The notes beneath the pieces were generated by a model. That model made no database searches and had not been told where the DNA came from. It saw nothing but the letters and a program-made list of their open reading frames with translations. From Succinivibrio sp. (lineage in GTDB: Bacteria > Pseudomonadota > Gammaproteobacteria > Enterobacterales > Succinivibrionaceae): 51,179 nt of DNA. Each line of letters opens with the position of its first letter. The first letter of the stretch is position 1. Positions 4,506 through 50,171 of the stretch are shown here, piece after piece. The position numbers and the translations under genes were made by a program. The stretch lies in NCBI GenBank assembly GCA_045634805.1, contig JAZRAY010000121.1, positions 1 through 51,179 of the forward strand, in the 5' to 3' direction.

Positions 4506-5233
4506 TTAGTCGCCATTATTAATCTCACTTTCAAATCTCTTCTCTAAGGCTTCCAATGAATAATCGGGTCTAAATAGGATTGATGTCTTTTGCTGCATTC
4601 CCTTTAATATTTCCCAATATTCAGGAAGATTGTTATAAATTGCTTCTAATTCTTTCAGGTTCTTGTTTCCGCAACAGTAGCAGGAGACTCTATCAAGCAC
4701 CTGATACAACTGCACTCCGTTATCTTCCAGATATGTAAATCCGTTTTTGTAGCACTTAACTAGGCAGTCATTTTCAGTCATGCCCCATAAAATCAGGGGA
4801 TAGATTTTGATGTTTTTGCCTCTTTTAATACGAACTCTGTCAAGTTCATCCTTGGCGATTCCAACATATTCACATACTGGCTCATCGCCGAAAGTCTCTT
4901 TGTAGAAGTTGTTGATTAACTGCTTTTTAAGCTCGGTTCCCCAACGCGCTCTACCTCCGCACCATGAATAACCTTTCTTTATGCTTTTGTCTCTTGTCTT
5001 GATTTCATGCTCGCAAAAGTAATAATCAAAAGGTTTTGATAGTGTCAGCCGTTTATGCTTTACCCCCCCCTACACAGAAGGGCAGACAAGCGGTCCCAAG
5101 CCTTATAAATGCTTTTAAACTCTTTGCCTAAATCAACAAAAATCACATAATCCAATGGAAGCTTCTTTTCGAGGAGGGTTAATACCATTGCCAGGCTGTC
5201 CTTTCCACAAGAGCAACTTGCTACGTATTTCAT
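4506..5233 (-). pseudogene. PAPS-reductase-like (PP-loop, Cys-rich) protein, frameshifted at a G8 tract
   Basis: ATG 5233 reads MKYVASCSCGKDSLAM (PP-loop SxGKDS) and stops at RGG* directly after G8 (5063-5070). Adding one G continues GYSWCGGRARWGT...YVGIAKDE...YPLILWGMTENDCL...RVSCYCC to 4506 (242 aa). Confidence 0.85.
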
Positions 5234-5236
5234 TAT

Positions 5237-5401
5237 TTAGTCACCATCTCGCTCAATCTTTTCCCATTCCTTCTCAAGCTCTCGAACATAACCATGGGGA
5301 TCACCTTTCTCAAGTTCCTCTCTTATCATTCGCTGTTGCAGTGTTTCGTATGGTTGCTGCACAAAGTAATCATCTGCATTTTTATTTGTTTCGTTGGTCA
5401 T
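5237..5401 (-). CDS. small hypothetical protein (54 aa)
   Basis: ATGA-coupled to 5398..5781 with GGAG SD; MTNETNKNADDYFVQQPYE...; below the ORF-track cutoff. Confidence 0.6.
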   Translation of the reverse strand: MTNETNKNADDYFVQQPYETLQQRMIREELEKGDPHGYVRELEKEWEKIERDGD

Positions 5402-5781
5402 CTTTTTTCTCCTTTCTTTAGTGGTTTATCAATGTATATATAAAAATTGTGAGATAGTCTGTCGTAGTCACGATCACTTTCGGGATATTGCTTTCCAGTG
5501 TTTAAATCAAGCCCCCACTGACCGCCATTAGACATACAGCCTGTATATAAGTAGGTGTTTATACCCAGCACTTCATACTCTAAAAGTTCTAAAATGCGGT
5601 CTTGGGTATAATCACTGTCTTCATGATCTCGAAACCAGAAGCTCTTAAAGTCTGAAGTAACACATCTGTGATGCACCATTTCGCTTGGATGCTTGTTGAA
5701 GTTATCATCTTCATCCATGATGCACAGCACGAACTCTGTTGGATTCGGCATAATCTTGATTAAGTCCTTAAATTTAGTCAT
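5398..5781 (-). CDS. hypothetical protein
   Basis: 127-aa ORF with GAGG SD. Confidence 0.7.
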   Translation of the reverse strand: MTKFKDLIKIMPNPTEFVLCIMDEDDNFNKHPSEMVHHRCVTSDFKSFWFRDHEDSDYTQDRILELLEYEVLGINTYLYTGCMSNGGQWGLDLNTGKQYPESDRDYDRLSHNFYIYIDKPLKKGEKR

Positions 5782-5797
5782 TTGTATATGTATATCC

Positions 5798-5853
5798 TCA
5801 ATGCATCAGATTCTGACTTTTCAATGCATCAAATTAAGATTTTTCAATGTATC
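5798..5853. repeat. three direct repeats TCAATG(C/T)ATC with exact 23-bp period
   Basis: Copies start at 5798, 5821 and 5844 in an intergenic gap. Confidence 0.75.
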
Positions 5854-5865
5854 TGTTTTTTGTGT

Positions 5866-5997
5866 TTAAGGAAGTCGCTCTTCCATCAGGTCTTTAAGTT
5901 CTTCAATCTCATTTAAAACCTGAAAGACAAGATAGATTGCAATGCCGACAGTGGTCCCGAGTAAGCACAAAACAATCAAGATTAAGATTTCAGTCAT
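5866..5997 (-). CDS. small single-TM protein (43 aa)
   Basis: MTEILILIVLCLLGTTVGIAIYLVFQVL...; ATGA-coupled. Confidence 0.6.
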   Translation of the reverse strand: MTEILILIVLCLLGTTVGIAIYLVFQVLNEIEELKDLMEERLP

Positions 5998-6125
5998 TCT
6001 TCTATGTCCTCATCATTCTTTAGTTCTTTATAGAGCTTAAAAGACACCCAGACGACACCAATCAGGAAGCAGATTAGGAGCGCGCACTCAATCTCAATTA
6101 GGTAAGGGAAGTCTAGTTTTTCCAT
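5994..6125 (-). CDS. small single-TM protein (43 aa)
   Basis: MEKLDFPYLIEIECALLICFLIGVVWVSFKLY... Confidence 0.6.
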   Translation of the reverse strand: MEKLDFPYLIEIECALLICFLIGVVWVSFKLYKELKNDEDIEE

Positions 6126-6128
6126 TTT

Positions 6129-6314
6129 CTATTCCATCCACCTAACATCGTTGGAAGGAAAATTTCGGTCATCAGTTTCTCTGTAATTTTCTTCCGGCTC
6201 ATCGTCATTTGGCTCTCGTCCAAAATCGTCGTATTCTTTCTCACTCTTACCGCTCAGATAATCGTAGTACTCGTCAGCACTGTCGAAGTCATAACATGTT
6301 TTATAACGTGCCAT
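6129..6314 (-). CDS. acidic hypothetical protein
   Basis: GGAG SD, 61 aa. Confidence 0.65.
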   Translation of the reverse strand: MARYKTCYDFDSADEYYDYLSGKSEKEYDDFGREPNDDEPEENYRETDDRNFPSNDVRWME

Positions 6315-6500
6315 TTTGTTTCTATTACTCCAGTTAAGGCTTTATTTAAAAAAAGAGCTTCTGTACAAAAATCAGAGCACTCATAAAGAACAGTGCAACG
6401 ATTGAGCCCTGAATCAAATCACAGATAAAAAAACGTCTGCGGAGCTTTCTGATTTCGTCTTCTACTATGTCTTTTGTCATGATTAACAAGCCTTCTATGT

Positions 6501-6782
6501 CTATTTGATTTCAACCGTCGGACACATAACTCCGGCGCTTTCATTAAGTGAAAAATGTTTCATTGCAGCACCCAGTCTGCTATAATCTTCAACTCTGTTA
6601 CAGGATAAGGCCTCTGTATGAATGATTAGGGCTAGAGAATCATCTGAAAAGACCTTGATAATACTGCGACAGTTATTGTCCTTTTTATTTCGTAGGATTA
6701 AAGGGATTGCACTCACCCAAGGGATAGATTTGGCTAGAATCTCACTCCCTTGGAGGGTGTCACACACAACATCTACTTTCAT
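6501..6782 (-). CDS. hypothetical protein
   Basis: ORF in the early-left operon with AGGA SD. Confidence 0.55.
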   Translation of the reverse strand: MKVDVVCDTLQGSEILAKSIPWVSAIPLILRNKKDNNCRSIIKVFSDDSLALIIHTEALSCNRVEDYSRLGAAMKHFSLNESAGVMCPTVEIK

Positions 6783-6820
6783 TCTTGTTTACGTCCTTAT
6801 CTAAAGAAAAAAATAACTAA

Positions 6821-7168
6821 CTAAAAAAGAATTCTGTCCCGATACTTCTTTGCAGAGAAAAGAATGATTTTTCTTAAATCCTGCTGAGATATGGAGAGGG
6901 CCTGAGCTACTTCTTTGAAGGTGAATTGATTAAACAGTCTGGATAACATTTCTTCTATTGTTTTCTTATGAATCTGCTCAAGTCTTGCAATCAGCTCTTT
7001 AATGCGCTCCCTATTGGTTTTCTTGGAACGGCCAGAGCTAGTCTTGTATCTTTTCCCTGGTACCGCTTCTTTGGCGATTCTCTCATCTGACCATCCACAC
7101 TCAATCAGTCGTCTGACAGTCCGGCGCGATATCTTCTTCTGCCTTGCAAGCTCCCTGATTGCTGTCAT
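6821..7168 (-). CDS. putative HTH DNA-binding protein
   Basis: N-terminal IRELARQKKISRRTVRRLI and C-terminal TFKEVAQALSISQQDL, both HTH-like. Confidence 0.6.
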   Translation of the reverse strand: MTAIRELARQKKISRRTVRRLIECGWSDERIAKEAVPGKRYKTSSGRSKKTNRERIKELIARLEQIHKKTIEEMLSRLFNQFTFKEVAQALSISQQDLRKIILFSAKKYRDRILF

Positions 7169-7178
7169 GAAAGTATCT

Positions 7179-7484
7179 CTATCCTCTTACTTCCAGGTGT
7201 GCGTTGTACCAGTTAATCAAATCCTCACGATAGAACTGTCTCTTACCGCGATTTATACTTATCATGCGGACTCCGGTTAGTCTTCCTGACTGTACCAGTC
7301 GTCTTAAGCTTGGAACACTGATAAAAAGCATTTGCGCTGCTTCTTTTACATCCAGCATTAACTTCCCTTTGAAAGCAAAATCAGACTCAGGAATGCTCTG
7401 AATTTCACGAGGAGAGTCTGATGTAGAGACAACCTTGCGCGGAGTCAGTTCTTTACCTAATAACTGTTTATAATCTGCTTTCAT
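7179..7484 (-). CDS. excisionase-like HTH_17/AlpA-type DNA-binding protein
   Basis: MLDVKEAAQMLFISVPSLRRLVQSGRL...FYREDLINW. Confidence 0.75.
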   Translation of the reverse strand: MKADYKQLLGKELTPRKVVSTSDSPREIQSIPESDFAFKGKLMLDVKEAAQMLFISVPSLRRLVQSGRLTGVRMISINRGKRQFYREDLINWYNAHLEVRG

Positions 7485-7515
7485 TTCTGCTTTAATTCCT
7501 TATTCTTGTCTCTTA

Positions 7516-7554
7516 AAAAATCCCCCTCAAAGAAACGGCAGATCATGAGGGGGC
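7516..7554 (-). terminator. possible intrinsic terminator
   Basis: CCCCCTCA...TGAGGGGG stem followed by a U run on the minus strand. Confidence 0.5.
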
Positions 7555-7569
7555 CAAAGTTTCACACAT

Positions 7570-8667
7570 TTAGAGTTCTGAAGTCAGCTCATCAACCTTT
7601 TTATTCAATGCTTCGTGCAGAGCTGATTTCTCTTCCACTGAGAGAGAACCATCATTGTTAATCATGGTCTTTAAGCCCTCCGCATCAAAATCAGCGGTCA
7701 TGGTCTGAATCAGATTCATGGTCTTTTCAAATAGAGGATTAGCCTCAGCTTTCTTGGTCTTCTTTGATGACTTTGCAGGTGCTGTCTCCTGAGCGGTTGG
7801 CATTCCGATTGCTGATGCAAATGCATCACTCTCAGACTGAGCTACTTGCTGAGACTGTGGAGCTGATGGGGCAACTGTGAAATAATCCTCAACCTTACCC
7901 ACTCCGTCATTCAGTGAAACATAAATCTGACGAAGCTGTAAGAACTGTGCAGGAAGGATTGTTTCGATACGACGCTGAATTCGCTCCTCAATCATTTCCT
8001 TGGTTACATGGAACTCAGCAAAAGCTCCTAGAAGCTTCTTAATCGATTCAGGAGAGGTATCCACCTGAGCCTGCATGGTGATGTTACACTGACGCACAGC
8101 CTGTTCGATGATATCACCAGGAAGAATTGCCTGAAGACATGCTCTCACACGACGAGCTGCGTTGTTTGCTTCAAGCTCATAGATATCGCGTGGGTCGGTC
8201 AGCTTATAAGAGCCTTTCTTGGTATAGCGCTCTAATGGTACTGAGAAAGTTCTTTCCTCACGAGCATTAGTCTCTACATCCCAAGCGTAAGCCTGAAGGA
8301 CAGCTACATTTCCGTCATTTGAAAGCTCTCTCCATCCAGACTGAATATTTCCCCATTGAGCCTTAATAATTTCCATCAGACGAATAGATGGACCTGAGAT
8401 AGAAGTACCACCTCTTGCATACTGATAAACAGCTACAGAAGCTAGAGTAGGGCGTGTACAAGCATTCAGAATGTTGTCACAAGCCTTAACTGGGTCTCTA
8501 GGGAACATCTTGGCAATCTGAAGAGATGCCTGAACCTCGGCAATATTCTTCTGCACTTCGGAGGTCCCCATGACACTCATATTTGTATTTGCGCCCTGAC
8601 GAAGAGAAGGCATATTATTCTGTGAGAAGGGATTATCTAAACGTTGAACGTTATATGAATCTGTCAT
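7570..8667 (-). CDS. putative single-strand annealing recombinase
   Basis: AKMFPRD...YARGG..ISGPSIRL motif family; lies immediately downstream of a YqaJ exonuclease. Confidence 0.65.
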   Translation of the reverse strand: MTDSYNVQRLDNPFSQNNMPSLRQGANTNMSVMGTSEVQKNIAEVQASLQIAKMFPRDPVKACDNILNACTRPTLASVAVYQYARGGTSISGPSIRLMEIIKAQWGNIQSGWRELSNDGNVAVLQAYAWDVETNAREERTFSVPLERYTKKGSYKLTDPRDIYELEANNAARRVRACLQAILPGDIIEQAVRQCNITMQAQVDTSPESIKKLLGAFAEFHVTKEMIEERIQRRIETILPAQFLQLRQIYVSLNDGVGKVEDYFTVAPSAPQSQQVAQSESDAFASAIGMPTAQETAPAKSSKKTKKAEANPLFEKTMNLIQTMTADFDAEGLKTMINNDGSLSVEEKSALHEALNKKVDELTSEL

Positions 8668-8712
8668 TTTGTTAAATCCTCATATTTTATCTGTTTTGGA
8701 TTGGGTGATTTT

Positions 8713-9867
8713 TTACAACTTCACCTTATTGGAGAATCTTCTTTCACGGTATGAAAGCTCTTTATAGATATCAGGCTGCTCCGTTTCCAGACGCTTCACA
8801 TCAAGCTCATGCTTAACGATAGTGTTGTAAGCTTCATACACTGATGGATACTTGCTTAATAGTGTCTTGGAATCGAATTTAATGGTCTTTGTTGCCTTAT
8901 ATGTGGCGACCAGATTTCCGCTATTGTCTTTAATACCCTCATGTCCTGCAATCATGTCCTTAAGCTGCAGCTGATAGGAGTCTTTAAGGCTGTTTAGTTC
9001 TTTTATCTGCTTATCAAGTTCAGCGCACTTGGTTGCGAGGGATAAAGCCATATTGTCTTCATTGTCACTGATATAATCACCCTCGATAGTTGCTTCATGA
9101 GCATATTTCTCTGCAAGAGAACCAAGCTTCTTAGGCTCTGGAGGAATCTCGGGAATCAGATGATTGAAGAGGAAATCCTCTCCCACTGAAACAAGGTGAT
9201 TGAAGATATCCTCATTATGATGAATCACATACAGACGAGGCTCTTCCTCAAGTCCGATTAATGCTGATAAAATTGCGGTTTTAGGGGCCTTATCCTTAAA
9301 CAGACGGTTAGCAATACCCAGTCCCCAATAAACCTGACATTTATAATCAAAAGGGATCTTGTAGTCTTCAATTACGATATGACCGCGGTCATCAAACTCA
9401 GAACCATTGCCCCATACACCTCTAGCTGGTCTCTCAATGCGCTTGCATTCAATATTGATTGGACCATACTGCTCAGTCACCGCAGTAGCGTCAATCTGAG
9501 CTGAGATATAAGGCTTCTCAACATCATTTAAATCACAGCCTTCAAGAGGAGAAGTTCTCATCAGAGCACATGCCTCACGAGCAATCTCTGCCTCTAACGC
9601 AGCTCCTCGACGAGTTTTATTGTTTCCTTCCCATGGTTCAAAGTAACAGAGCATATCCTGAAAAACATCAAGCGAATCGGCATACTTTGAAGCTCCCACA
9701 ATTGCTCCAATGCGGGAACCTGACAGACGTATGCAGTGATTTGCTAGCCATTCAGGAGACTTGTCCAGATTAGGATATTCTCGAAAATGATTTACGGCTT
9801 TGCTGTAGTGGTTAGGAGACCATTCACCGTAGATTTCATTCATTTGAGATTGAGTTAAGTTATTCAT
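8713..9867 (-). CDS. YqaJ-like phage recombination exonuclease
   Basis: GSRIGAIVGASKY, RGAALE, SAQIDA, IECK and YKCQVYWGL motifs. Confidence 0.85.
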   Translation of the reverse strand: MNNLTQSQMNEIYGEWSPNHYSKAVNHFREYPNLDKSPEWLANHCIRLSGSRIGAIVGASKYADSLDVFQDMLCYFEPWEGNNKTRRGAALEAEIAREACALMRTSPLEGCDLNDVEKPYISAQIDATAVTEQYGPINIECKRIERPARGVWGNGSEFDDRGHIVIEDYKIPFDYKCQVYWGLGIANRLFKDKAPKTAILSALIGLEEEPRLYVIHHNEDIFNHLVSVGEDFLFNHLIPEIPPEPKKLGSLAEKYAHEATIEGDYISDNEDNMALSLATKCAELDKQIKELNSLKDSYQLQLKDMIAGHEGIKDNSGNLVATYKATKTIKFDSKTLLSKYPSVYEAYNTIVKHELDVKRLETEQPDIYKELSYRERRFSNKVKL

Positions 9868-9910
9868 AACGTAATAAATATATATTGATAAATAAATAAA
9901 AAATAACGAT

Positions 9911-9944
9911 ACGATAATTATATCTGTTACGATAATATTATCAA
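9911..9944 (-). promoter_or_regulatory. leftward early promoter (PL-like) with candidate operator half-sites
   Basis: -35 TTGATA (9944-9939), 16-bp spacer, -10 TATAAT (9922-9917). ACGATAAT at 9911 and 9929; TCGATAAT also at 10891 upstream of cro. Confidence 0.6.
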
Positions 9945-10119
9945 CTATATTTAGCTAAAATAAACAATAAAAATAATTAAATTGAGGTTTTGTGAATAAA
10001 ATCACCTTTTATTAAGAATGAGTAAGAAATATTAAATTTGAGTAATAAATGATAAATATGGCAGGTTTTTGGATATTTTTATATACAAGTTCGATATAAA
10101 AATATCTAATTTTATAGAC

Positions 10120-10147
10120 AAAAAAAAGATGTTGCCGCGGCAACATC
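10120..10147 (-). terminator. intrinsic terminator after the repressor gene
   Basis: Palindrome GATGTTGCCGCGGCAACATC followed by U8 on the minus strand. Confidence 0.8.
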
Positions 10148-10178
10148 CTTGTCAAATATTCAGTTTAATCTGATATAG

Positions 10179-10814
10179 TTAAATTAAAGAAGAAAACTTT
10201 CCTATAACAACTCCAATTATTTTTATGCTTGAATCAAGATCGGTATATTTTGGTTCCCAATCTGGGTTAATAACTTTTAATCGAGGCTGACCGTTAAATT
10301 CACGAATAAAGACTTTCATGGTTATATAAGCCTCAGGCTGCTTAGTATCTTCTACCACGACCACACATCCAGAATGCAGTTCCTGATCAGGATCAATATA
10401 GATAATATCGCCCTCCTGAAATTTCGGCAGCATACTTTCACCAGACACTCTAAGACAGAACACATCTGTTCCCGCAGGGACAGGGCACATATACCACTCT
10501 TTAACGTCATCAGCTCTGATTTCTCGATATATTCCGGCCTGTTCTGGTGTTAATAAAGGAGCTTGTTTGAATTCTCTAAAGGTATTAATCGCACTTATAT
10601 TGGTATCACCCTGAAGAAAGGTTAAAACAGAGACTCCTAAAGCCTTTGAAAGAGCTTTTACAGTTGTTAGTGATGGGTCTTTAGTTCCGCCTTTTACAAG
10701 CTTCTGAAGTGATGATTGAGCAACACCTGCTTTTATAGCAAGTGCATTAACCGTCAGATTCTGTTTTTTCATTAACCGCTGAAGTAATTCAGGGTAGTCA
10801 ACATCGTTATTCAT
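10179..10814 (-). CDS. cI: CI-like repressor (XRE HTH + S24 autopeptidase)
   Basis: HTH LAIKAGVAQSSLQKL; S24 motif VSGESMLPKFQEGD and catalytic Lys in TMKVF; divergent from a Cro-like gene. Confidence 0.9.
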   Translation of the reverse strand: MNNDVDYPELLQRLMKKQNLTVNALAIKAGVAQSSLQKLVKGGTKDPSLTTVKALSKALGVSVLTFLQGDTNISAINTFREFKQAPLLTPEQAGIYREIRADDVKEWYMCPVPAGTDVFCLRVSGESMLPKFQEGDIIYIDPDQELHSGCVVVVEDTKQPEAYITMKVFIREFNGQPRLKVINPDWEPKYTDLDSSIKIIGVVIGKFSSLI

Positions 10815-10942
10815 TTTTCATCCTTAACTCACATTTTTGAATGATAACAAAATGAATTAATAAAAAAAATGTTGATTAAATACCGCCGTTTCGATAATAA
10901 TAAATAGACTATTCAATATTTAAATTCATCAAGGGATATAAA

Positions 10943-11206
10943 ATGCTAAAAACACCAAATGAGTGTGCTCGTATTCTTAGGGACCACGGTCTGAGTCAAA
11001 ATGAGATAGCCTGCCTTGTTGGTCTTTCACAAAGTACCGTCAATACTCTTCTTAACAATGAAAATCATGTCACCACTTATCTAGTCGCAGATAAGCTTAG
11101 AGAATGCGTCAGAATCGTTAATAAGCAGATGGGAGCCTTAGTTATTAAGGCTAATGCAAGAAATATAAGAAAACAAAGATCTTCTTCTTTGGATAAGAAC
11201 TTATAA
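10943..11206 (+). CDS. cro: Cro-like HTH regulator
   Basis: GLSQNEIACLVGLSQSTVNTLL; divergent from cI. Confidence 0.75.
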   Translation: MLKTPNECARILRDHGLSQNEIACLVGLSQSTVNTLLNNENHVTTYLVADKLRECVRIVNKQMGALVIKANARNIRKQRSSSLDKNL

Positions 11207-11242
11207 GAATAGTTTTTTTTAACTTAACTAATGGAGAAAACA

Positions 11243-11389
11243 ATGCAAATCAACCTTAAAAAGACTCGTCAGTTCAATATCCCTTCATCATCTGCCAATC
11301 GTCTAAATACAAAAGAGCTTCTTCTTGTAGGAAGAGTAATGGCTTTAATTTCAAGAAAGAATAAAGAACAGACAAGTCATGACTTATAA
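11243..11389 (+). CDS. 48-aa protein resembling the N-terminus of the replication initiator
   Basis: GGAG SD; FNIP...RLN...VGRVMAL vs YKIP...KLN...LGRIMVL in 11435..12544. Confidence 0.6.
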   Translation: MQINLKKTRQFNIPSSSANRLNTKELLLVGRVMALISRKNKEQTSHDL

Positions 11390-11434
11390 AAGAAATAAAT
11401 ATTTAATTCACCGCAAAACATAAGCGAGTCAAGA

Positions 11435-12544: not shown

Positions 12545-12791
12545 TGTTTTAAAAGACTTACAGCCGGAGATTGATTCTCTTTTTGATAAAGTCAGGTCTG
12601 AAAGTCCAATGGCTCAGAGACTGTCAAAGACTGAGTGGAATAAAGTCAGGCAGGAGGTATCTGTGCCACTGATTCAGGGTTTTAAAACGGGCAGGGTGAA
12701 AACTCAGGAAGAACACGACAAAATGTTCAAGATGGCAGAAGAACTCGCACACATACAGATTATTTTAATTAGCCATAGCAAATGGAGGTAA
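12534..12791 (+). CDS. hypothetical protein
   Basis: Overlapping ORF in the replication operon with GAGG SD. Confidence 0.65.
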   Translation: MVLDVLKDLQPEIDSLFDKVRSESPMAQRLSKTEWNKVRQEVSVPLIQGFKTGRVKTQEEHDKMFKMAEELAHIQIILISHSKWR

Positions 12792-14670: not shown

Positions 14671-14713
14671 TTGATTTATAAGAAGATTTTATAAAAAAAT
14701 TAAACAAACATAA

Positions 14714-16234: not shown

Positions 16235-17212
16235 ATGAAGTATATATCTCTGTTCTCGGGAATCGAAGCTGCTTCATGTGCATGGTCAAAACTTGATGGA
16301 TGGAAGCCTATAGCCTTCAGTGAAATTGAGAAGTTCCCATGTAGCGTATTAAAACACCATTTCCCTGATGTTGCGAATATGGGAGATATAACAAAAATAA
16401 ACAGACAGACTATTGAGGAAGTCACAGATGGACAAGCAATCGACCTTGTTGTGGGAGGAAGCCCTTGCCAAGACCTGTCAGTCGGGGGGGGTAGAGCAGG
16501 AATACATGGAAAGCGTTCTGGACTGGCCTTCGAGTATCTTAGACTGCTCGCTATTATCCGACCTGAATGGGTGCTGTGGGAAAACGTCCCCGGAGTACTA
16601 TCGTCAAATCAGGGACGAGACTTCAAAGAACTCCTCAAGGCATTTAATGACGCAGGGTATGGTTGTGCATGGAGAGTGCTTGACTCAAAATACTTCGGAG
16701 TCGGTCAACGGCGCAGAAGAGTCTTTCTTGTGGGACATTTTGGAGACTGGCGACCTTCCGCAGCGGTACTATTTGAGCGCGAAGGCTTGTCAGGGAATCC
16801 TGAGAAGAGCCGAGGAACACAGAAAGATTTTACCCGATTCTCTGAAGAAAGCACTGGAGAAACAGAGTCAGATATAACCCATGGTTTTCACTGCTTCGGG
16901 GAGGGGAGTTTTTATACCTTCAGGGAACAGAATCAGGCTTCAACCCTTAAGGCAAGCGGTGGAAATCTTGGAGGAGGTTCTGAGAATTTCGTCTTTAGAA
17001 GCGGTGAACATCCTACTGATTTGAGAAAGCTTACTCCTAAAGAGTGTTTAAGATTGCAGGGGTTCCCGGATGACTGGTTTGACGGAGTGGAAGGATATTC
17101 GGACACTGCAGCTTATAAGGCAATAGGAAATTCAATGGCCATTCCCTGCATGTACTGGATTGGAAGAAGAATTCAGATGGTTGCTGATATTCTGAGAGAG
17201 AGGGGATATTAA
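16235..17212 (+). CDS. C5 cytosine DNA methyltransferase 1
   Basis: Motifs I SLFSGIEA, IV GGSPCQ, VI WENVPG, VIII QRRRRVF, IX LTPKECLRLQGF, X AIGNSM; G8 tract at 16484-16491. Confidence 0.95.
   Translation: MKYISLFSGIEAASCAWSKLDGWKPIAFSEIEKFPCSVLKHHFPDVANMGDITKINRQTIEEVTDGQAIDLVVGGSPCQDLSVGGGRAGIHGKRSGLAFEYLRLLAIIRPEWVLWENVPGVLSSNQGRDFKELLKAFNDAGYGCAWRVLDSKYFGVGQRRRRVFLVGHFGDWRPSAAVLFEREGLSGNPEKSRGTQKDFTRFSEESTGETESDITHGFHCFGEGSFYTFREQNQASTLKASGGNLGGGSENFVFRSGEHPTDLRKLTPKECLRLQGFPDDWFDGVEGYSDTAAYKAIGNSMAIPCMYWIGRRIQMVADILRERGY
16428..16877 (+). CDS. alternative-frame beta polypeptide nested in the methyltransferase (M.EcoHK31I-beta type)
   Basis: +1 frame open for about 150 codons; GAGG SD 9 nt before ATG 16428; C-terminal LWDILE..LPQRYYLSAKACQGILRRAE..K.LP..L..AL signature. 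Confidence 0.7.
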   Translation: MDKQSTLLWEEALAKTCQSGGVEQEYMESVLDWPSSILDCSLLSDLNGCCGKTSPEYYRQIRDETSKNSSRHLMTQGMVVHGECLTQNTSESVNGAEESFLWDILETGDLPQRYYLSAKACQGILRRAEEHRKILPDSLKKALEKQSQI

Positions 17213-17216
17213 AAAC

Positions 17217-17300: not shown

Positions 17301-17328
17301 ATTAAATAAATCATAAGGACAAACAAAC

Positions 17329-18735
17329 ATGAGTGAACAGAGGAAAGTCACAGTAGTTCTTACCGTGCATGATGTCAAGCTCGGTTATCTTGTTGCGTGT
17401 CTGACTTCATTGGCTTTTCAGAAGTATAAAAATTTTGAAGTTTTGATAATTGATGACTGCAGCAAAACAGATTACTCCTTCCTGAAGAAGCCTTTTAAGC
17501 CTCTCCTCAGTCATCCGGCTCTAAATATTCGCTATGTCAGGAATGAAACTAATCTCGGTCTAAATGCTTCAGTGAATAAAGCTTTCTCTATGATTCAGTC
17601 TGAGTATGTAATCCGTCTTGGCTCAGATGATCTTTTTCATGAGGATATGCTCCTGAAGGAAGTCACTTTCCTTGATAAGAATTCTAATTACATCGCATGC
17701 TGCTGCGGTCTTCAGATGTTCGGTAGGAAGGATAATTACATCCATCGAGACAGAGAATGGACCTTAAACTGTAATCTGAGATTTAAGGCTAATGACTACG
17801 GCTATGGCGGTGGTATGCTATTCCGTTCTTCTGCCTTAGCTTACTGCAGGATTGATTCAAACCTTAAGATGTGTGAAGACTTCGACTTCCATCTCACGTT
17901 ACTAGAACATGGAAAGATTCATGGAATTGATGAGCCTCTGTATCAGTATCGACAGCATGAAAGGAATCACTGCAGAACAATCTCCAATACCGAGAGAAAG
18001 CAGTTCCTGGTATATATCTTCAATAAGCACCATGTGAACGATGATCTGATTTCAATTCTAATGCCGGTCCATAACACGAATCCGATGTTTGTCTCTGACT
18101 GCCTAGAATCACTTAAGAAACAGACCTACAAGAAATTTGAGATTATTTTCTACGATGATGGCTCATCAGTGGATTATAAGCACCTCTCAGCCTATAAGTC
18201 TCTCAGAAAGTATATTCGATACTTCCGAAACGATGTGAAGCAGGGAATCTCCAATACTCTGAATTTAGCATGTGAGAGGGCTCATGGCGAGTATCTGGTC
18301 AGAGTTGATTCTGATGATATCTGTGACAAGGAATTCCTTGAGAGGGAGATTAACTTCCTCAAAGAAAATCAGGATTATATCGGAGTCTGCTGCAATCTTA
18401 AGCAGTTTGGCTTAAATGACGAGATTATCTATCGTCCTTCAGTATTCGATATCAATTCGGTTCATGACCGCAAGAGCGCGCATGGGTATGGTTACGGCTG
18501 CGGAATGATGTTCAGAAGAAAAGCTCTGGAGTCATGTTTCTTTGATCCCGCCTTTGTTGTCTGTGAAGACTTTGATTTTCATCTTCAGCTTCTTAAGGTT
18601 GGAAAAATCAAAGGTCTTGGAGTGCTTTACTACTATCGACAGTATGAGGCCAGCACTATCCATCAGTACAACAACAAGCAGCGCTTTGAGCTGATAAATA
18701 AGATTTTAAAAAAACATAATTTACTTAAGGAGTAG
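17329..18735 (+). CDS. tandem double GT2 (GT-A fold) glycosyltransferase
   Basis: Two repeats, each with DD(C/G)S, RLGSDD/RVDSDD and CEDFDFHL motifs. Confidence 0.9.
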   Translation: MSEQRKVTVVLTVHDVKLGYLVACLTSLAFQKYKNFEVLIIDDCSKTDYSFLKKPFKPLLSHPALNIRYVRNETNLGLNASVNKAFSMIQSEYVIRLGSDDLFHEDMLLKEVTFLDKNSNYIACCCGLQMFGRKDNYIHRDREWTLNCNLRFKANDYGYGGGMLFRSSALAYCRIDSNLKMCEDFDFHLTLLEHGKIHGIDEPLYQYRQHERNHCRTISNTERKQFLVYIFNKHHVNDDLISILMPVHNTNPMFVSDCLESLKKQTYKKFEIIFYDDGSSVDYKHLSAYKSLRKYIRYFRNDVKQGISNTLNLACERAHGEYLVRVDSDDICDKEFLEREINFLKENQDYIGVCCNLKQFGLNDEIIYRPSVFDINSVHDRKSAHGYGYGCGMMFRRKALESCFFDPAFVVCEDFDFHLQLLKVGKIKGLGVLYYYRQYEASTIHQYNNKQRFELINKILKKHNLLKE

Positions 18736-18740
18736 AAAAC

Positions 18741-19256
18741 ATGAACGGAATTAACGAGGTTACTCTATTAGGCAATCTGACCGACGAACCACAGATAAGA
18801 GCTACCTCAAACGGAAAGAAAGTCGCAAGCTTTACCATTGCAACCAATGAATCCCATAAAGACCAGAGTGGTAACTGGGTGAGTGAGGCGGAGTATCACA
18901 GAGTTATTGCATGGGAGGGATTAGCCAATACAGTCGAGAAGTGTCTTCATAAAGGCTCTCCGGTTTTCGTTAAAGGCAAGATTAAGACCAGACAGTATCA
19001 GGGCAAAGATGGTCAGAATCGTTATGTGACCGAGATTCTGATTAACCAGATTGTGCTGATTGGAGATAGACCCAGGCCTCAGCAGGTAAATGGTAATGCA
19101 TATCCACAGAAGGGTAATGTAAAACCAAGCTACAACCGCAGAGCGAATAATGCTCAGTCAGACTTCAGCGGAATTCAGGCCAGGTATGACGAAAACGGGA
19201 GACCTTTGAATCAGAATAACCAGGAAGAACCAATAGACGACGAAGTGCCTTTCTAA
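18741..19256 (+). CDS. ssb: single-stranded DNA-binding protein
   Basis: INEVTLLGNL OB-fold start; acidic DDEVPF tail. Confidence 0.95.
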   Translation: MNGINEVTLLGNLTDEPQIRATSNGKKVASFTIATNESHKDQSGNWVSEAEYHRVIAWEGLANTVEKCLHKGSPVFVKGKIKTRQYQGKDGQNRYVTEILINQIVLIGDRPRPQQVNGNAYPQKGNVKPSYNRRANNAQSDFSGIQARYDENGRPLNQNNQEEPIDDEVPF

Positions 19257-19281
19257 TCTAATTAGACATAATCTCTCACAT

Positions 19282-19316
19282 AAAAAAGCCTGAGTAGGTA
19301 AGACCTCAGGCTTTTT
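19282..19316 (+). terminator. bidirectional intrinsic terminator
   Basis: AAAAAAGCCTGAG-loop-CTCAGGCTTTTT. Confidence 0.8.
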
Positions 19317-19490
19317 GCGTATTAGTGATCAAAAGTTTATTTTATGCAGTTCTTATTTTACACAAAAAATGTGATGAATTCACATGAATGTGACTGCTAT
19401 GCCTTTCTTTAACGTGTTTAACCCCTAAAATTAGAATCAGATAACAAAAAAACAACAAACAATCAAACAAACATTCTATTGGAGGAAAAC

Positions 19491-19922
19491 ATGTCACCGG
19501 TCTTGAATGAGGCTATTCAGAGCTATGACTCGTATTATCCATACGTGATGTCTTGGGGAGCATGGGCGAGACAAAACAAGGAGATTCCGAAAAATTACCG
19601 CTGCAGTCTTGGAAGATTTGTTCCTCCTGAAAGTAAAACCAATCTTTATCCAATCATCACTCAGGAAGTTGCTCAAGAGATAGACAACGCTTTTGCAAAG
19701 TCACGTCATACTCCCAAGAGTGGCAAGATTTCTGATTCAATAGATTTTCAATTAACTCAGTGGATGTTGGTGGCAGGGAATGACTCACTGGATGTTTTCT
19801 GCACTGCAAAATACCTCAAAAGGCTATTCAGAGAGAATAATCTCAAGTTTGACCTCCTGACAATCGAGTGGAAAATTCGTGATATCATTGAGAGGTCGAG
19901 AGGATATCTTCTGGCACTTTAA
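19491..19922 (+). CDS. putative late antiterminator Q
   Basis: SWGAWAR motif, size, and a pR'/tR' pair upstream of the lysis genes; ATG 19491 follows GGAGG. Confidence 0.55.
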   Translation: MSPVLNEAIQSYDSYYPYVMSWGAWARQNKEIPKNYRCSLGRFVPPESKTNLYPIITQEVAQEIDNAFAKSRHTPKSGKISDSIDFQLTQWMLVAGNDSLDVFCTAKYLKRLFRENNLKFDLLTIEWKIRDIIERSRGYLLAL

Positions 19923-20208
19923 ACCACCCTGAAAACACGTATAAAAAAATAAACAAAAATCACGAAGTGGTTAAAAGAGTGGTTAAAACAAGTTGCTTAT
20001 AGAATTAACTTATTGATTTTAAGTGAAATACAACATAAGGAAAGATTATGCAGTAATTTTTCCAAAAACCTCAATAAAAGCCTTTATAAATAAGGCTTTT
20101 TGCTTGTTTTTAAGCGGTTTTTTATCTTATCAAAATTTAATAAAACTTGTCAAAAATCGCTTAAAGTGGTTAAATATAACAAAATAAGTGGTCAAATAAG
20201 TGGTCAAA
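19918..20208. mobile_element. putative intact attP: arm-type repeats and IHF site
   Basis: RAGTGGTYAAA at 19965, 19977, 20164, 20186 and 20198; IHF consensus TAACTTATTGATT at 20006-20018; directly upstream of the integrase. Confidence 0.75.
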
Positions 20209-20219
20209 AAATTTAGTTT

Positions 20220-21428
20220 ATGCAAAACGGTTACAAGAAGGTATCCGACAGGATTCTTCGCACTCTTGTCCCTCCTGAAGGTAGGACATCAATCAACGTC
20301 CCTCTGTCAAAAGGTTTAAGCTTCAAAGCTATCTCTTACGATTACAAGGGTGAAACAAAAGTCACAAGGTCTTATATTTTCCGCTATACGCTCAACGGTA
20401 AGAAGTACAATCAATCTTTAGGCAAGGTTGAGGATTATACCATCGCCGAGGCAAGAGAGATTGCAGAGCGTTGTCAGGAGATTGTCTCAAAGTACAAGGT
20501 CAAACCCTCAGACTACATGCAGATGGAAGAGCTGAATCAGTCAGCTAAGACCCTTGAGGATTTGATTGAGACGTTTTTTGAACATCGGAAAAATCTTGCT
20601 CAGAACACTGTTGAGACATACAGACGCTCTGCCAAGGTTTTAGCTCCGCTATACGGTCAGCCAATCAATGAGCTTAAGGTTGCGGACTTCTCTGAGATTC
20701 TCTTGGAAGTCGGTCATGATAGACCAGGATTATCGAGATATGTCTGTGTGTTTATAAAGACGCTTTTCAATTTTGCTGTTTCAATCGGTCTACTCGAAAG
20801 TCATCCCTTCAACCGCCTAAGAGAGATGCAATACACTCCCAAGCATTTCAAAACAATCCCCATGAAGGACTATCAGACCGAGATAGCAGATGTCTTTGAG
20901 GTATTCGCAGACAAGGATATTCACAGAGTTAAGTCTCTGTTTGTTGCTCTTGGGTTCTTCACACTGCTTCGACCTGCCGAGGTGCAGAGTCTTAGAATCG
21001 AGGACATAAACCTGACTGAGAAATATATCTGGTGCCGTAAGACCAAGACCCTCAAGAATGGATTCAATGTACCTCTGACTGCTCCGCTGATTGCTTTGCT
21101 TGAAGTGATTCGTGACGGCAGAAAAGAGGGAGAATTCTTCCCGACCATTAAAATCAGGACTCTTGCTGTATTTCTCAGGAATCACAAAGTCCCTTTCAAT
21201 CTGCATGGATGGAGAGCTGCAGGAGCGTCATGGATGGTCCGCAATAAGATTTCCCTGCATATCGCTGATGCATGCTTATCCCATAAAATCGGAGATAAGG
21301 TCACTCTAGCCTATGTACGAGGCGATTTACTTGAGGAGCGCAGAGAAGCTATGGAACAGTGGCATCGCTTTTTATGCGGTGTTTTCGCTAACACTAAAAA
21401 CCTAGAATTTTTGTCTAAATATCAGTAA
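20220..21428 (+). CDS. int: tyrosine integrase (P4-like, arm-binding N-terminus)
   Basis: Catalytic R (LLRPAE), HGWR, LSH, Y (LAYVRG), RREAMEQW tail. Confidence 0.93.
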   Translation: MQNGYKKVSDRILRTLVPPEGRTSINVPLSKGLSFKAISYDYKGETKVTRSYIFRYTLNGKKYNQSLGKVEDYTIAEAREIAERCQEIVSKYKVKPSDYMQMEELNQSAKTLEDLIETFFEHRKNLAQNTVETYRRSAKVLAPLYGQPINELKVADFSEILLEVGHDRPGLSRYVCVFIKTLFNFAVSIGLLESHPFNRLREMQYTPKHFKTIPMKDYQTEIADVFEVFADKDIHRVKSLFVALGFFTLLRPAEVQSLRIEDINLTEKYIWCRKTKTLKNGFNVPLTAPLIALLEVIRDGRKEGEFFPTIKIRTLAVFLRNHKVPFNLHGWRAAGASWMVRNKISLHIADACLSHKIGDKVTLAYVRGDLLEERREAMEQWHRFLCGVFANTKNLEFLSKYQ

Positions 21429-21443
21429 GTTATAAAGAAAAAT

Positions 21444-21472
21444 TTGACAAAAAATGTGACCCACCTTATACT
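21444..21472 (+). promoter_or_regulatory. late promoter pR'-like
   Basis: TTGACA-17 bp-TATACT upstream of the lysis genes. Confidence 0.8.
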
Positions 21473-21510
21473 GAATTTAGTAAGATGGACAAATTGTCAA
21501 TATAGAGAAA

Positions 21511-21540
21511 GCCGTGAACCGATGAGGACACGGTTTTTTT
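21511..21540 (+). terminator. tR'-like terminator
   Basis: GCCGTG/CACGGT stem plus U-tract about 35 nt after the promoter. Confidence 0.75.
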
Positions 21541-21666
21541 GTTTCTATAAAAAAATTTCTAGTTGTTGAAAGTGTTCAAACCTTGTATGTAAAACATGAG
21601 ACGTGTCCGCCCCTTCCGGGAATAAATCCCCCTGAAGGGGTTTTCTTTTATGAGGGTGTGTAAAAA

Positions 21667-21981
21667 ATGCTGAAAGAATGGTTCAATGACGGGGGAGGAA
21701 TCTATATGACTATCGGTGGACTGACCTCTTTTGTGATGGCACTTCTCAGAGCCAAACATACCAAAATCGTTGACCGTCTGGGTGAAGCTGCCACATGCGC
21801 TCTACTTTCAACCGGCCTGATTACACTGGCTAATATTTACTATCCCGAGTATCCTCAGTGTTCAATCTTGATTGGAACCTTTGTCGGCTTCCTCGGCTCA
21901 GACTATCTGACTGAAATCATTAAGAACATCATCGGTTTTTTAGTTGATAAGCTTACCAATCGCGGAGGTTCATCAAAATGA
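21667..21981 (+). CDS. holin (lambda S-like)
   Basis: Three hydrophobic segments, IGTFVGFLGSD motif; precedes the lysozyme. Confidence 0.8.
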   Translation: MLKEWFNDGGGIYMTIGGLTSFVMALLRAKHTKIVDRLGEAATCALLSTGLITLANIYYPEYPQCSILIGTFVGFLGSDYLTEIIKNIIGFLVDKLTNRGGSSK

Positions 21982-22427
21982 AAATCAGTGACAACGGCAT
22001 TAACCTCATCAAGCAGTTTGAAGGCTTAAGACTTACTGCATATAAGGCTCATTACTCAGAGAGGCATTTTTCGATTGGTTACGGCCATTTTGGTCCTGAT
22101 GTCAAAGAGGGGGATACTTGCAACGAGCTTTACGCAGAAAACCTCCTGAAGAATGACCTTAAGATTTTTGAAAAGAGAATCAACAAGGGCCTAGAAGAAG
22201 ATCATATCGCTGTAAATCAGAATCAGTACGATGCGCTGATTTCTTTTGCTTACAACGTCGGTTCTGAGAATCTCCTTTCCTCGACCTTATGGCGCAAGCT
22301 TAAATCAGGGGATTATGAGGGTGCAGCCAATCAGCTCCTCCGTTGGAATAAATGCGGAGGTCAGATTCTTCCTGGTCTTGTAAACAGACGCGATAAAGAG
22401 CGCGCTCTGTTCCTTAAAAAGATTTGA
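21978..22427 (+). CDS. endolysin, GH24 lysozyme
   Basis: IKQFEGLRLTAY, IGYGH, NQNQYDALISFAYNVG, GLVNRRDKERALF. Confidence 0.93.
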   Translation: MKISDNGINLIKQFEGLRLTAYKAHYSERHFSIGYGHFGPDVKEGDTCNELYAENLLKNDLKIFEKRINKGLEEDHIAVNQNQYDALISFAYNVGSENLLSSTLWRKLKSGDYEGAANQLLRWNKCGGQILPGLVNRRDKERALFLKKI

Positions 22428-22449
22428 ATATAGTCTAAAAGTGAAAGAA

Positions 22450-22715
22450 TAGCTTTTCTCGGTTTTTCGGCGATTGGCACATCTTATGGCATGTGAAAAA
22501 ACCGAGACCACTTCATCGAAAATCGCAACCCTAAGGGCGCATAGTTCCCTATGTGATTTAAGTATCTTTTGACATCGTTATTGCCGTAACGGTACTGGTA
22601 CCTAAGACCTTATTTCATACGAATAAGCTATGCAGAGACGGCGACCATGTACATATCAGACATGATCCGCCCTCCGTCAGTTTTGTATTCCTGATGTCTC
22701 GACCTGAATACAAAT
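22450..22715 (+). ncRNA. candidate structured non-coding RNA (multiple stems, possible pseudoknot)
   Basis: Dense run of inverted repeats, e.g. 22457-67/22497-507, 22520-27/22552-59, 22637-41/22674-78, 22682-90/22706-14; no convincing ORF. Confidence 0.45.
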
Positions 22716-22719
22716 TATT

Positions 22720-22867
22720 ACCGACATCGGATAACGGGAGTCCATATAAGCGACTGACACATGATTGCTTAACGTTTTTTCTATCTGCAAATAAGAAAAA
22801 AATCTTTTTTGTTACTCAATCGTTATGAACTTATAGAGCGGTGGTTCAACTCCATCTGTCGGTACCA
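22720..22867 (+). tRNA. tRNA-like RNA with a 72-nt insertion in the anticodon arm
   Basis: Acceptor ACCGACA/TGTCGGT + A + CCA; D arm GGAT-AACGGGA-GTCC; anticodon stem ATAAG/CTTAT; T arm GGTGG-TTCAACT-CCATC. Confidence 0.7.
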
Positions 22868-23077
22868 CAACTAAAAAAATAATAAAACAGACATCTGGGA
22901 CGTTATAAAAATGGCTTTCTTAATCGAAAAACTGATCAAGGATTATACGCTTGAGTCTGGCTATAAGAATCACCGTTTCTGCGCTCCTCCTTGCAGTTAT
23001 AGTCGCGATACAAAAATCAACCGTAACAACAGCTCAACAGCACGTGTTGTGCTATGGCATAAGCTATGGAGAGACAA

Positions 23078-23581
23078 ATGCTACCCTTTAAGTCACATCT
23101 GATTGTAGGAGCCGTCTCTCTGATAATCGGTCTTGGTGCCGGTTATTCAATTCGAGACGAGAAAGCTCATATCAAAGATTTAGAAAACATTCAAAGCGCA
23201 TTGGAGCTTGAACGGGATAATTTGATTAAACAGCTTGAGGTCGAACATGAGTACCAGAAGGCAGCGCAAGCAACAGCTGAACAGGCGCAAGCGGATTTGG
23301 AATCGCTTGAAGCAAGCTATGCTGATGCTATCAATGAGCTTAATGATTTGCAGCTGTTCTACAGCACCCAAGATTATCAAGACGAATCAGCACTGTCCGA
23401 CGATTCCGAGTCTACCGGCTCAGTTCCAGAAGAGGGAAGTCAAAGCACTTCAGGCAACGAAAGAGAATTTCAAAAACTATATGAGGAACAGCTCAAAATC
23501 GCAAAAGACTGCGACATCACAACCTCATACTACAACCGAATTTTAGAGCTTTATCAGTCAATCGAGCAGAATCAGCAGTGA
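23078..23581 (+). CDS. inner-membrane spanin (Rz-like)
   Basis: N-terminal TM segment then coiled coil; hosts a nested lipoprotein ORF. Confidence 0.75.
   Translation: MLPFKSHLIVGAVSLIIGLGAGYSIRDEKAHIKDLENIQSALELERDNLIKQLEVEHEYQKAAQATAEQAQADLESLEASYADAINELNDLQLFYSTQDYQDESALSDDSESTGSVPEEGSQSTSGNEREFQKLYEEQLKIAKDCDITTSYYNRILELYQSIEQNQQ
23307..23546 (+). CDS. outer-membrane spanin lipoprotein (Rz1-like), nested in +1 frame
   Basis: Likely TTG start; MKQAMLMLSMSLMICSC lipobox followed by Pro-rich CPTIPSLP. Confidence 0.7.
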   Translation: MKQAMLMLSMSLMICSCSTAPKIIKTNQHCPTIPSLPAQFQKREVKALQATKENFKNYMRNSSKSQKTATSQPHTTTEF

Positions 23582-24297
23582 TACAGAAAAAAATAAGCGT
23601 AATTCTTACACTCTTCAATGTTCCGTCAGAATATGTGAGAGAGTGCTTCAATTCCTTGAAGTGTCAGACTTTCAAGAATTTCAAGATCATTGTGATTGAT
23701 GACTGTTCCGAGATTGATTACTCATGGATTAAGAGTTCAAATCAGTTTCAGGATTTAGAGATTGTCTATATCAGGAACAAAAAGAATTTAGGCTTATGTA
23801 AAACCGTCAACAAGGCTTTTGATCTCGTTGATACTGAATACTGCATCCGCTTAGGTTCGGATGACGTCTTTAACAGCGATCTTCTGCGCAAAGAGGTTGA
23901 ATTCCTTGAGCGTAATAGATTCGCTATTGCGGTATGCTGCGAGTTGCAGAAGTTCGGATGCTCCAATACGCTGATAAAAAGGCCTCTGTTATGGAATCCG
24001 GTTAAAATCAGACTCGCTGAAGAATTTATTCCCCATTATCACGGATGGGGATATGCGGGATCAATGCTTTTCAGAAGCTCCGCTCTTGAGATATGCCGGA
24101 TAAATGAGAATTATCCCATCTGTGAGGATTTTGATTTCCACTTACAGCTTTTAGAGCTTGGAGAGATTCACAGCATCCATGAACCGCTGTACTTATACCG
24201 CTCTCATGGGGATAACTACTGCAAGCAGTTCAAACGGGCAGACAAGAATCAGATTCTAATACAGATTATGAGAGAGCATGGACTTGTACTTGAATGA
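23578..24297 (+). CDS. GT2 glycosyltransferase
   Basis: VIDDCS, RLGSDD, CEDFDFHLQLL; closely resembles domain 1 of 17329..18735. Confidence 0.9.
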   Translation: MIQKKISVILTLFNVPSEYVRECFNSLKCQTFKNFKIIVIDDCSEIDYSWIKSSNQFQDLEIVYIRNKKNLGLCKTVNKAFDLVDTEYCIRLGSDDVFNSDLLRKEVEFLERNRFAIAVCCELQKFGCSNTLIKRPLLWNPVKIRLAEEFIPHYHGWGYAGSMLFRSSALEICRINENYPICEDFDFHLQLLELGEIHSIHEPLYLYRSHGDNYCKQFKRADKNQILIQIMREHGLVLE

Positions 24298-25058
24298 GCG
24301 GTTATGACGTAGTAATTCCGGTTAGGCCGGGGGAGAGAAATGAGGATTTGCGATTCTCTCTGCGCTCATTGGATAAATTTGGATTTAACATACGCAAAGT
24401 CTGGCTAGTTGGGTATCGACCTTCATGGGTCAGAAATGTTGAGATTTTACCCACTAGCCAACACCTCGACAAATGGCTTAACACTCGAAAGAACATTGAA
24501 TCTGCCTGTAGGTGTAAAGAAATTACGGATGATTTTATTCTGATGAATGACGACTTCATCCTTACTCAGCGAACCTCAGACTGGAGACATTTCAACGGCT
24601 ATCACCGAGGCACACTTTTTGAAAAGGAGTGTTTTTATAGCAGATTTCCTGACGGCAATGTCTGGAGAGAAGGATTCCATTTTAACCGTCAGATTCTGAT
24701 TCTTGCAGGATATGGCAAAGGGGAGTTTGAACCGCTCAATTATGAAGTTCACTTTCCAGTTGTCCTTAATCGTGAGAAGCGTTTAACACTGTTTGACCGT
24801 CCTGAATTCAGGAAGTACAAAAACGAATCAGACCCGCTTCTCTTTCAGCGGTCCATATACTTCAACCTTTACCCTCATGAGTTCCAGAGACAAATCTCAG
24901 ACGGTAAGATATTCACTGACGTTAAGAACTTTGACTATTTTAGACAGCACGAAGTTATCTCTGTCGCTGACAATGTAATCGGTGACAGAGATAAAGCCCC
25001 AATACTTCATCAATGGCTTGATGAGAATCTTTCTGAGAAGTCATGCTTTGAAGCCTGA
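24294..25058 (+). CDS. Stealth-family-like (hexose-1-phosphate transferase-like) protein
   Basis: DLRFSLRSLDKF, IRKVWLVG.RPSWV, ITDDFILMNDDFIL resemble Stealth conserved region 2. Confidence 0.7.
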   Translation: MSGYDVVIPVRPGERNEDLRFSLRSLDKFGFNIRKVWLVGYRPSWVRNVEILPTSQHLDKWLNTRKNIESACRCKEITDDFILMNDDFILTQRTSDWRHFNGYHRGTLFEKECFYSRFPDGNVWREGFHFNRQILILAGYGKGEFEPLNYEVHFPVVLNREKRLTLFDRPEFRKYKNESDPLLFQRSIYFNLYPHEFQRQISDGKIFTDVKNFDYFRQHEVISVADNVIGDRDKAPILHQWLDENLSEKSCFEA

Positions 25059-25111
25059 TAAAAATCAATAAAACAAAATACTCTAAATCAATAAAACGGA
25101 CGTTCTTCAAA

Positions 25112-25645
25112 ATGAAATTTGTACAGCATATCGAGATGCGGAGTACGGATTCACTAATCCCTTATGCCCGCAATTCTCGAACCCACAGCAAGGAGCAGGT
25201 CTCACAGATTGCTGCTTCCATTAAAGAGTTTGGATTTAATGCGCCTATAGCGGTTGATTCTGATGGCGGTATCATTGCCGGTCACGGTCGAGTTCTTGCA
25301 GCGCAACAGCTCAAACTTAAGGAAGTTCCGGTTGTTGTCCTAGACCATCTGACTGAGGCTCAGAAGAAAGCTTATATCATTGCTGATAACAAACTGGCCT
25401 TAAATGCTGATTGGGATTATGAACAGCTGAAGATTGAACTTGAAGAATTAAAGGAATCTGATCTCGATTTAAGCCTTATCGGGTTTAATGACAAAGAACT
25501 GACAAACATCTTGAATGCCAATGATTTCAAGCCTTCCGAGCTATCGGGGGGGGTAGAACTAGACACAGAAGATTATAGCGAAGATAAGTTTGAACATAAG
25601 TGTCCTCGTTGCGGAATGTTGTTTAATGACAATGAGGATGACTAG
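25112..25645 (+). CDS. ParB/Srx-like domain protein with C-terminal CxxC (methyltransferase-associated)
   Basis: PYARNSRTH, SIKEFGF..PI, IIAGHGR, IADNKL, HKCPRCG; G8 tract at 25546-25553. Confidence 0.85.
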   Translation: MKFVQHIEMRSTDSLIPYARNSRTHSKEQVSQIAASIKEFGFNAPIAVDSDGGIIAGHGRVLAAQQLKLKEVPVVVLDHLTEAQKKAYIIADNKLALNADWDYEQLKIELEELKESDLDLSLIGFNDKELTNILNANDFKPSELSGGVELDTEDYSEDKFEHKCPRCGMLFNDNEDD

Positions 25646-50132: not shown

Positions 50133-50171
50133 TTAACTGGAGAAAAGAGGAATAGAATTATTCATTTCTCT

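Follow-up and report, generated by a model that had tools for sequence, protein, structure and literature searches.

Three runs of eight guanines (G8) in a phage sequence raise the question of whether homopolymer slippage switches the phage's DNA-modification genes on and off. The runs lie in a 51,179-nt contig of a Succinivibrio sp. genome bin (JAZRAY010000121.1 of GCA_045634805.1, our contig C121; this whole stretch is hereafter the window). Its gene content is that of a temperate contractile-tailed phage, with repressor, integrase, DnaB, lysis, terminase, head and tail genes. Run 1 interrupts a PAPS-reductase-like gene, run 2 is located within a C5 cytosine methyltransferase gene (MTase1), and run 3 falls in a ParB-like gene adjoining a second C5 methyltransferase gene (MTase2). 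Relatives display both frames at each run, and we therefore consider it quite likely that the three runs are slippage contingency loci of DNA-modification genes.

An original prediction made from the sequence alone had named these tracts the sole G/C runs longer than about 5 nt, and our tally of the window bears this out (12 runs of 5 nt, three of 8 nt, and nothing of 6 or 7 nt). As that prediction also held, a stop codon directly follows each tract (TAA at run 1, TAG at runs 2 and 3), and one gene is out of frame and two are in frame. The PAPS-like gene is the one out of frame; the genes for MTase1 (325 aa) and the ParB-like protein (177 aa) are in frame. In computed slips, a length change flips the frame at all three runs. 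Three runs of 8 or more arose in 0/200 order-2 and 0/200 order-4 Markov simulations, and elsewhere in the bin (2.06 Mb) there is just one G7 and one G8. GGG is the rarest glycine codon of the window (52 of 807 glycine codons across 52 open reading frames [ORFs]), and of the 54 Gly-Gly pairs just 2 are written GGG-GGG, each of them at a G8 run. Together, the four genes at issue make up 6.4% of the window, a post hoc figure, and among those that carry runs, Pfam recognizes a methyltransferase in MTase1 only. Eight A/T runs of 8–9 nt are also present, seven of them between likely genes.

Two of the tracts do share an identical 14-mer (starts 16482 and 25544). We considered this 14-mer as a mobile or recognition element and rejected the idea: its 54 viral loci represent 32 unrelated contexts with no likeness outside the 14-mer, and the sharing is explained by the codons for Gly-Gly-Val-Glu and Gly-Gly-Gly-Arg. 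Nor is a stop directly after the run a general rule, as 32 outside G/C runs do not follow it. Separately, a single 208-kb viral contig (L200, L203, L223 and L228) contains five 14-mer matches, several just 5′ of gene starts.

Frame states at the three runs

MTase1 (16235..17212, plus strand; PF00145, E 2e-58; TIGR00675 over cut-off) is intact in the window. Like MTase2, it exceeds the cut-off of its family profile and has the catalytic Pro-Cys. Run 2 (16484..16491, plus strand) encodes Gly84-86, six codons past the catalytic Cys, and is followed by the TAG. Gain of one G would place a stop at codon 86, shortly past Cys78; loss of one G would fuse the N-terminus to an overlapping ORF, giving 213 aa. 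This conserved ORF lies in the +1 frame of MTase1 and is open across run 2 (16413..16877, plus strand, with candidate starts at 16413, 16428 and 16506). It matches phrog_16143, annotated "DNA methyltransferase" (E 3e-9), and has tblastn matches in 18 other loci; our search found no solved structural relative. The other member of the MTase1 cluster, P0249 (257 aa, 90% identical), is encoded on a Logan contig of 21,272 nt. It opens in the window's +1 frame and enters the main frame within run 2, which is what a G6 allele would give; in that case the native frame stops at the TAG. The first run-2 codon encodes glycine in 0 of 119 other MTase1 homologues, all of which have Ala or Ser there. Frame changes at two further glycine sites are found in the MTase1 relatives P0407, P0295 and P0409.

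At run 1 (5063..5070, minus strand; C8 on the plus strand), the gene is OFF. Its 5′ part (5060..5233, minus strand; PF01507, E 6e-6) halts at codon 58, directly after the run, and the 3′ part (4506..5063, minus strand; phrog_424, E 1e-17) continues in another frame for 185 stop-free codons. The product is 57 aa in the present phase and 241-242 aa in the other, and full members of this family (673 homologues) have 230-260 aa. An identical 57-aa fragment, P0250, is encoded on a Logan contig equal in length to that of P0249 (21,272 nt); if the two are one contig, that phage is OFF/OFF at runs 1 and 2, and the window is OFF/ON. Gly-Gly at the run-1 site occurs in P0003 only, 1 of 109 homologues aligned over the site. 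The seven members of the P0003 cluster comprise three full proteins, one with an alternative-frame N-terminus that meets the main frame at the Gly-Gly, and three C-terminal pieces. In three clusters without Gly-Gly, 15/15, 15/15 and 14/15 proteins among the matches listed (of 63, 49 and 31, respectively) are near-full.

PF01507, phrog_424 and a structure model of P0003 (predicted local distance difference test [pLDDT] 83; matches to the PP-loop thiolases NcsA/TtuA, to APS reductase and to Cap9) support a PP-loop adenylating fold, and the protein is likely an adenylating enzyme. DNA is a putative substrate, judging by its neighbors and by the run itself. In other phages, these neighbors are often methyltransferases; NCBIfam assigned no family over cut-off.

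Run 3 (25546..25553, plus strand) forms codons 145-148 of the ParB-like gene (25112..25645, plus strand; PF02195 and phrog_620), whose alignment reveals a conserved C-terminal acidic/CPxC tail. The present product has 177 aa; a slip leaves 147 or 155 aa, and the tail is lost either way. Gly-Gly at this site was found in 3 of 120 ParB hits. A truncated allele, P0123, terminates in Gly-Gly-Gln-Ser, the end we would expect from loss of one G ahead of Ala-Glu-Leu-Asp codons. At the DNA level, locus L245 retains both the G8 and the TAG at 82% identity. It is the one close relative available as DNA, none having been found in IMG/VR or in the GTDB family and genus.

The tail that a slip would remove appears to be linked to the downstream enzyme. 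MTase2 (25649..26668, plus strand; PF00145, E 8e-39) is itself run-free and lies directly 5′ of the terminase genes. Directly after run 3, Glu149, Phe160 and the CPxC motif are invariant in 20 sequences. The window's tail type occurs at 6 of 147 independent ParB loci, and an MTase2-family gene comes next at all 6; 138 loci lack both tail and such a gene, and 3 tail-less loci precede a distant C5 enzyme. A CPxC tail of any kind is found at 16 ParB loci, where the next gene encodes a C5 methyltransferase (6), a Mom-like protein (6) or a small ORF (4); 12 of the 16 thus directly adjoin a modification gene. Tail type, as read from these sequences, tracks the partner enzyme. Modeling of MTase2 with ParB residues 138-177 supports binding of the tail: the complex scored 0.65, against 0.28 for the best control. 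Of solved pairs, 116 of 157 reach this mark, as do 2 of 215 mismatched ones; these figures apply here only roughly. At least 77% of contacts are common to the model runs, the partner has a pLDDT of at least 64, and the predicted interface centers on residues 145-150, encoded by or directly after run 3. The conserved tail, the downstream modification enzymes and the binding model together tie the ParB-like gene to DNA modification, as predicted from sequence and structure, better than the original prediction could show.

Two variants of this arrangement were seen. A second ParB tail subtype precedes Mom-like genes (L103, L104, L117, L133, L139 and L140), and MTase2 relatives without an upstream ParB tail bear an N-terminal extension that resembles a sliding-clamp-binding motif (L261, L264, L265, L267, L268, L270, L271 and L276).

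G/C runs in other phages

Comparable runs have arisen in other lineages, as seen at the DNA level in 39 MTase2-family loci. In one such lineage, the same ParB linker carries C7-C12 runs, and pairs that are 97-98% identical differ in run length; L253 is in frame (ON), and L251, L252 and L255 are out of frame (OFF). Other loci have G7 or G8 within motif I of MTase2, where the window phage uses mixed codons. Here L246 is in frame and L277 is stopped, the two being 96% identical with a single gap; L269 is out of frame, and L278 and L282 are in. Among the 15 members listed for the L246 cluster, 3 begin directly after the motif I run site. Judged by sequence, close relatives thus include both ON and OFF states, as proteins at the window's sites and as DNA in sister lineages. 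The predicted switch gains real support on three counts: both frames exist at 3/3 sites, glycines are missing from these positions in most homologues, and the same families have acquired further runs elsewhere in the genes.

We next consider phages at large. In 200 fetched loci (2.33 Mb; frames scanned in 45/77 and 93/135 candidates, with duplicates and shorter antisense frames dropped), we found 32 distinct G/C runs of 8 or more, 19 of which fall inside a methyltransferase, PAPS-like, ParB or transglycosylase-like gene or lie no more than 60 nt from one. The same was true of 3 of 32 G5 runs drawn at random and of 2 of 32 A/T runs, which served as controls. The resulting p of ~1e-5 is overstated because the loci were picked via modification genes and kin are not independent. 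Unselected pattern scans of IMG/VR, in which libraries and thresholds were not uniform across sets, placed 7 of 32 contexts of the 14-mer pattern in modification genes (60/96 frames scanned). The run-1 context, used as a replicate pattern, showed weaker enrichment (4/60; 80 of at least 121 loci). A first synonymous control gave 0/53, with one glucosyltransferase (80/108 loci, 76/100 frames). As this control lacked the Ser-Gly-Gly-Val frame used by 4 of the 7 hits, a second was run and gave 0/60, with two TilS-like matches (80/88 loci, 78/102 frames). Pooled, the pattern scans yield p = 1e-4, or 0.011 if the glucosyltransferase and the two TilS-like control matches are counted. Phage G/C runs of 8 or more are thus enriched in modification genes and are not confined to them.

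Two further kinds of run turned up in these sets. The L192 group (16 loci) has its G8 within a gut-phage tail fibre gene. Variable C8-C13 runs lie 30-50 nt 5′ of methyltransferase or PAPS-like starts in L031, L035-L046, L051, L056, L057 and L066, within apparent hairpin leaders; a possible role for these is expression tuning instead of frameshifting.

Mechanism, purpose and competing explanations

Slipped-strand mispairing is an established mechanism. Applied to the window, a slipping polymerase would insert or lose a G and shift the frame, turning a gene off or on. The targets would be MTase1, the predicted partner of MTase2, and a PP-loop enzyme that likely modifies nucleic acid. A slip at run 2 would cut MTase1 just past its catalytic Cys. 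At run 3, a slip would spare MTase2 and remove the ParB tail. As this tail is predicted to dock on that enzyme through its first residues, the missing subunit would leave methylation lost or reduced. Run 1 would be in its OFF phase in the window. Lineages bearing different DNA marks could then have an advantage across hosts unlike one another in their ordinary and methylation-dependent restriction. Given that the runs are switches, we lean slightly toward such a restriction hedge as their purpose. The hedge is plausible because 13 of the bin's 43 genus relatives have McrC-like genes. Switching may be slow, since MutS is present in 43 of 44 genomes.

Several observations weigh against this account. 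The runs are confined to modification genes, as originally predicted, within the window genome, but not in phages at large, where most G8 runs are elsewhere: 25 of 32 and 56 of 60 pattern-scan matches fall outside such genes, and the largest non-modification group is a tail fibre gene. OFF alleles of the closest relatives are known from proteins rather than DNA, no indel is listed at any run in the Logan contigs of relatives, and length differences among public contigs may include sequencing error. For run 1, the P0003 fold matches generic PP-loop enzymes only (E 3e-6 to 1e-4), and C-terminal pieces alone are weak evidence because a fourth PAPS cluster, the run-less P0005, has them too (2/5). 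As to the host, the phage is linked to it by binning only, and no McrC was found in the bin itself, which is 76% complete.

The main rival to the switch is unselected decay, in which dispensable genes tolerate glycine-codon G runs that expand and break them, with no selected reversible switch. Tolerance of frameshifts would by itself enrich runs in such genes; in the P0005 cluster, breakage occurs with no run at the site; and simple sequence repeats (SSRs) are depleted in essential phage genes according to one study (PMC12633550). Yet the window's other dispensable genes are run-free, run 3 has been retained despite 18% DNA divergence, and the 3′ part of the PAPS-like gene has no other lesion, with an identical OFF product in a relative. 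Run 2, moreover, stands where all 119 homologues have Ala or Ser, and runs recur in the same ParB linker, a G run in one lineage, a C run in the other. On balance, we judge decay unlikely. Homopolymer sequencing or assembly error could be suspected from a single contig, all the more as two contigs in run X2 end at run 3 (depth 5-6). This explanation is largely refuted by the presence of run 3 in an independent assembly (L245) and of the truncated PAPS product in another; error alters run length and cannot place runs in these particular genes.

Two other explanations accept the runs as functional. Real switches might serve the lysogen by methylating the host chromosome, as a prophage phasevarion, rather than protecting virion DNA. 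The phage is temperate, and SSR-switched methyltransferases are known to regulate bacterial genes, but gene order places the genes concerned in early-left, replication and pre-terminase regions, and a lysogen typically keeps such regions repressed; we regard this as very improbable. Alternatively, the runs could be programmed ribosomal or transcriptional frameshift sites that yield a fixed product mix from one genotype. G_GGG_GGG would suit a -1 slippery heptamer, run 1 ends at a stop, and run 2 lies within two conserved frames. Against this, no stable structure was found 3′ of any run (z -0.02, 0.47 and 0.47), run length differs among relatives, unlike a tuned recoding site, and two of the three genes are already in frame, so that we give recoding hardly any credence.

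If contingency loci are the correct explanation, the window offers a compact and testable example of a phage that hedges its bets through combinations of epigenetic states. A broader reading, which we find somewhat doubtful as a whole, is that G/C slippage runs evolve again and again on the modification genes of temperate gut phages, that one lineage shuffles up to 8 epigenotypes, that the ParB tail is a C5 methyltransferase binding subunit, and that another switch controls PP-loop DNA modification. The runs also act as pointers, marking ParB-like and PAPS-reductase-like genes as likely DNA-modification genes; the latter are often labeled as sulfur-metabolism auxiliary genes (a PHROG category). 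Many "pseudogenised" phage methyltransferases may likewise be OFF phases, and the predicted pair of ParB tail and methyltransferase is a direct biochemical lead.

Known systems and the setting of the phage

Bacterial phasevarions are built on SSR-switched methyltransferases of types I and III, which are ON or OFF according to repeat length. Those are chromosomal adenine enzymes that regulate host genes, whereas those of the window are phage C5 enzymes. Phage contingency loci have already been published, and PMC12633550 (Gomez, Barrick, Waters) shows the restriction hedge itself for phage T2 agt. T2 agt resembles the window in having a homopolymer frameshift in a phage DNA-modification gene, its hedge setting TgvAB against McrA/BC; it differs in being a poly-A run in one gene of a lytic phage, with measured rates (PMC12633550). 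The window phage, by comparison, is temperate and has poly-G runs in three genes, with one run predicted to act on a partner gene; it would extend the single-gene case of T2 agt. As cited in the same source, Bordetella phage BPP-1 has a poly-G run inside a methylase gene (Liu et al. 2004), similar to the window except that a single locus is involved, and G7-11 runs in Fletchervirus create phage subpopulations (Sorensen et al. 2021), in that instance through receptor-binding proteins and not DNA modification (PMC12633550).

Precedents also exist for the partner arrangements. A phage ParB activates a T-dioxygenase, a DNA-modifying enzyme (PMC13229309). Like the window's ParB, it is without a DNA-binding domain and adjoins its enzyme, and its C-terminal part is needed; the published partner is a dioxygenase, and that of the window is a C5 methyltransferase predicted to bind a CPxC tail. 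M.EcoHK31I is a two-chain methyltransferase whose beta chain supplies motif IX (PMC2836561). In its case, as in that of MTase1, the C5 methyltransferase gene also contains a second conserved ORF read in a different frame, although MTase1 appears to retain its own motif IX-X region. In the literature covered, mostly the main text of open-access papers, we found no report of several switched modification genes per phage or of a switched ParB partner.

The bin to which the window is assigned comprises 2.1 Mb, and blastn found no DNA common to the contig and the rest of the bin. Relatives of the phage occur in animal gut metagenomes. The window's ends do not close into a clean circle; at both, imperfect direct repeats (93% and 82%) lie among small leftward genes (1-141, 50171-50324 and 50633-50927). 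Its GC content is 40.3%. Across the whole window, GATC, GGCC and CGCG occur at 0.30, 0.47 and 0.50 of their expected frequencies, respectively, a scarcity that suggests restriction-site avoidance. Around the methyltransferase genes lie two GT2 glycosyltransferase genes (one tandem) and a Stealth-like gene (17329-18735, 23578-24297 and 24294-25058). These three genes, like MTase2, contain no G/C run. Surface conversion and DNA glycosylation are both candidate roles that their products may have.

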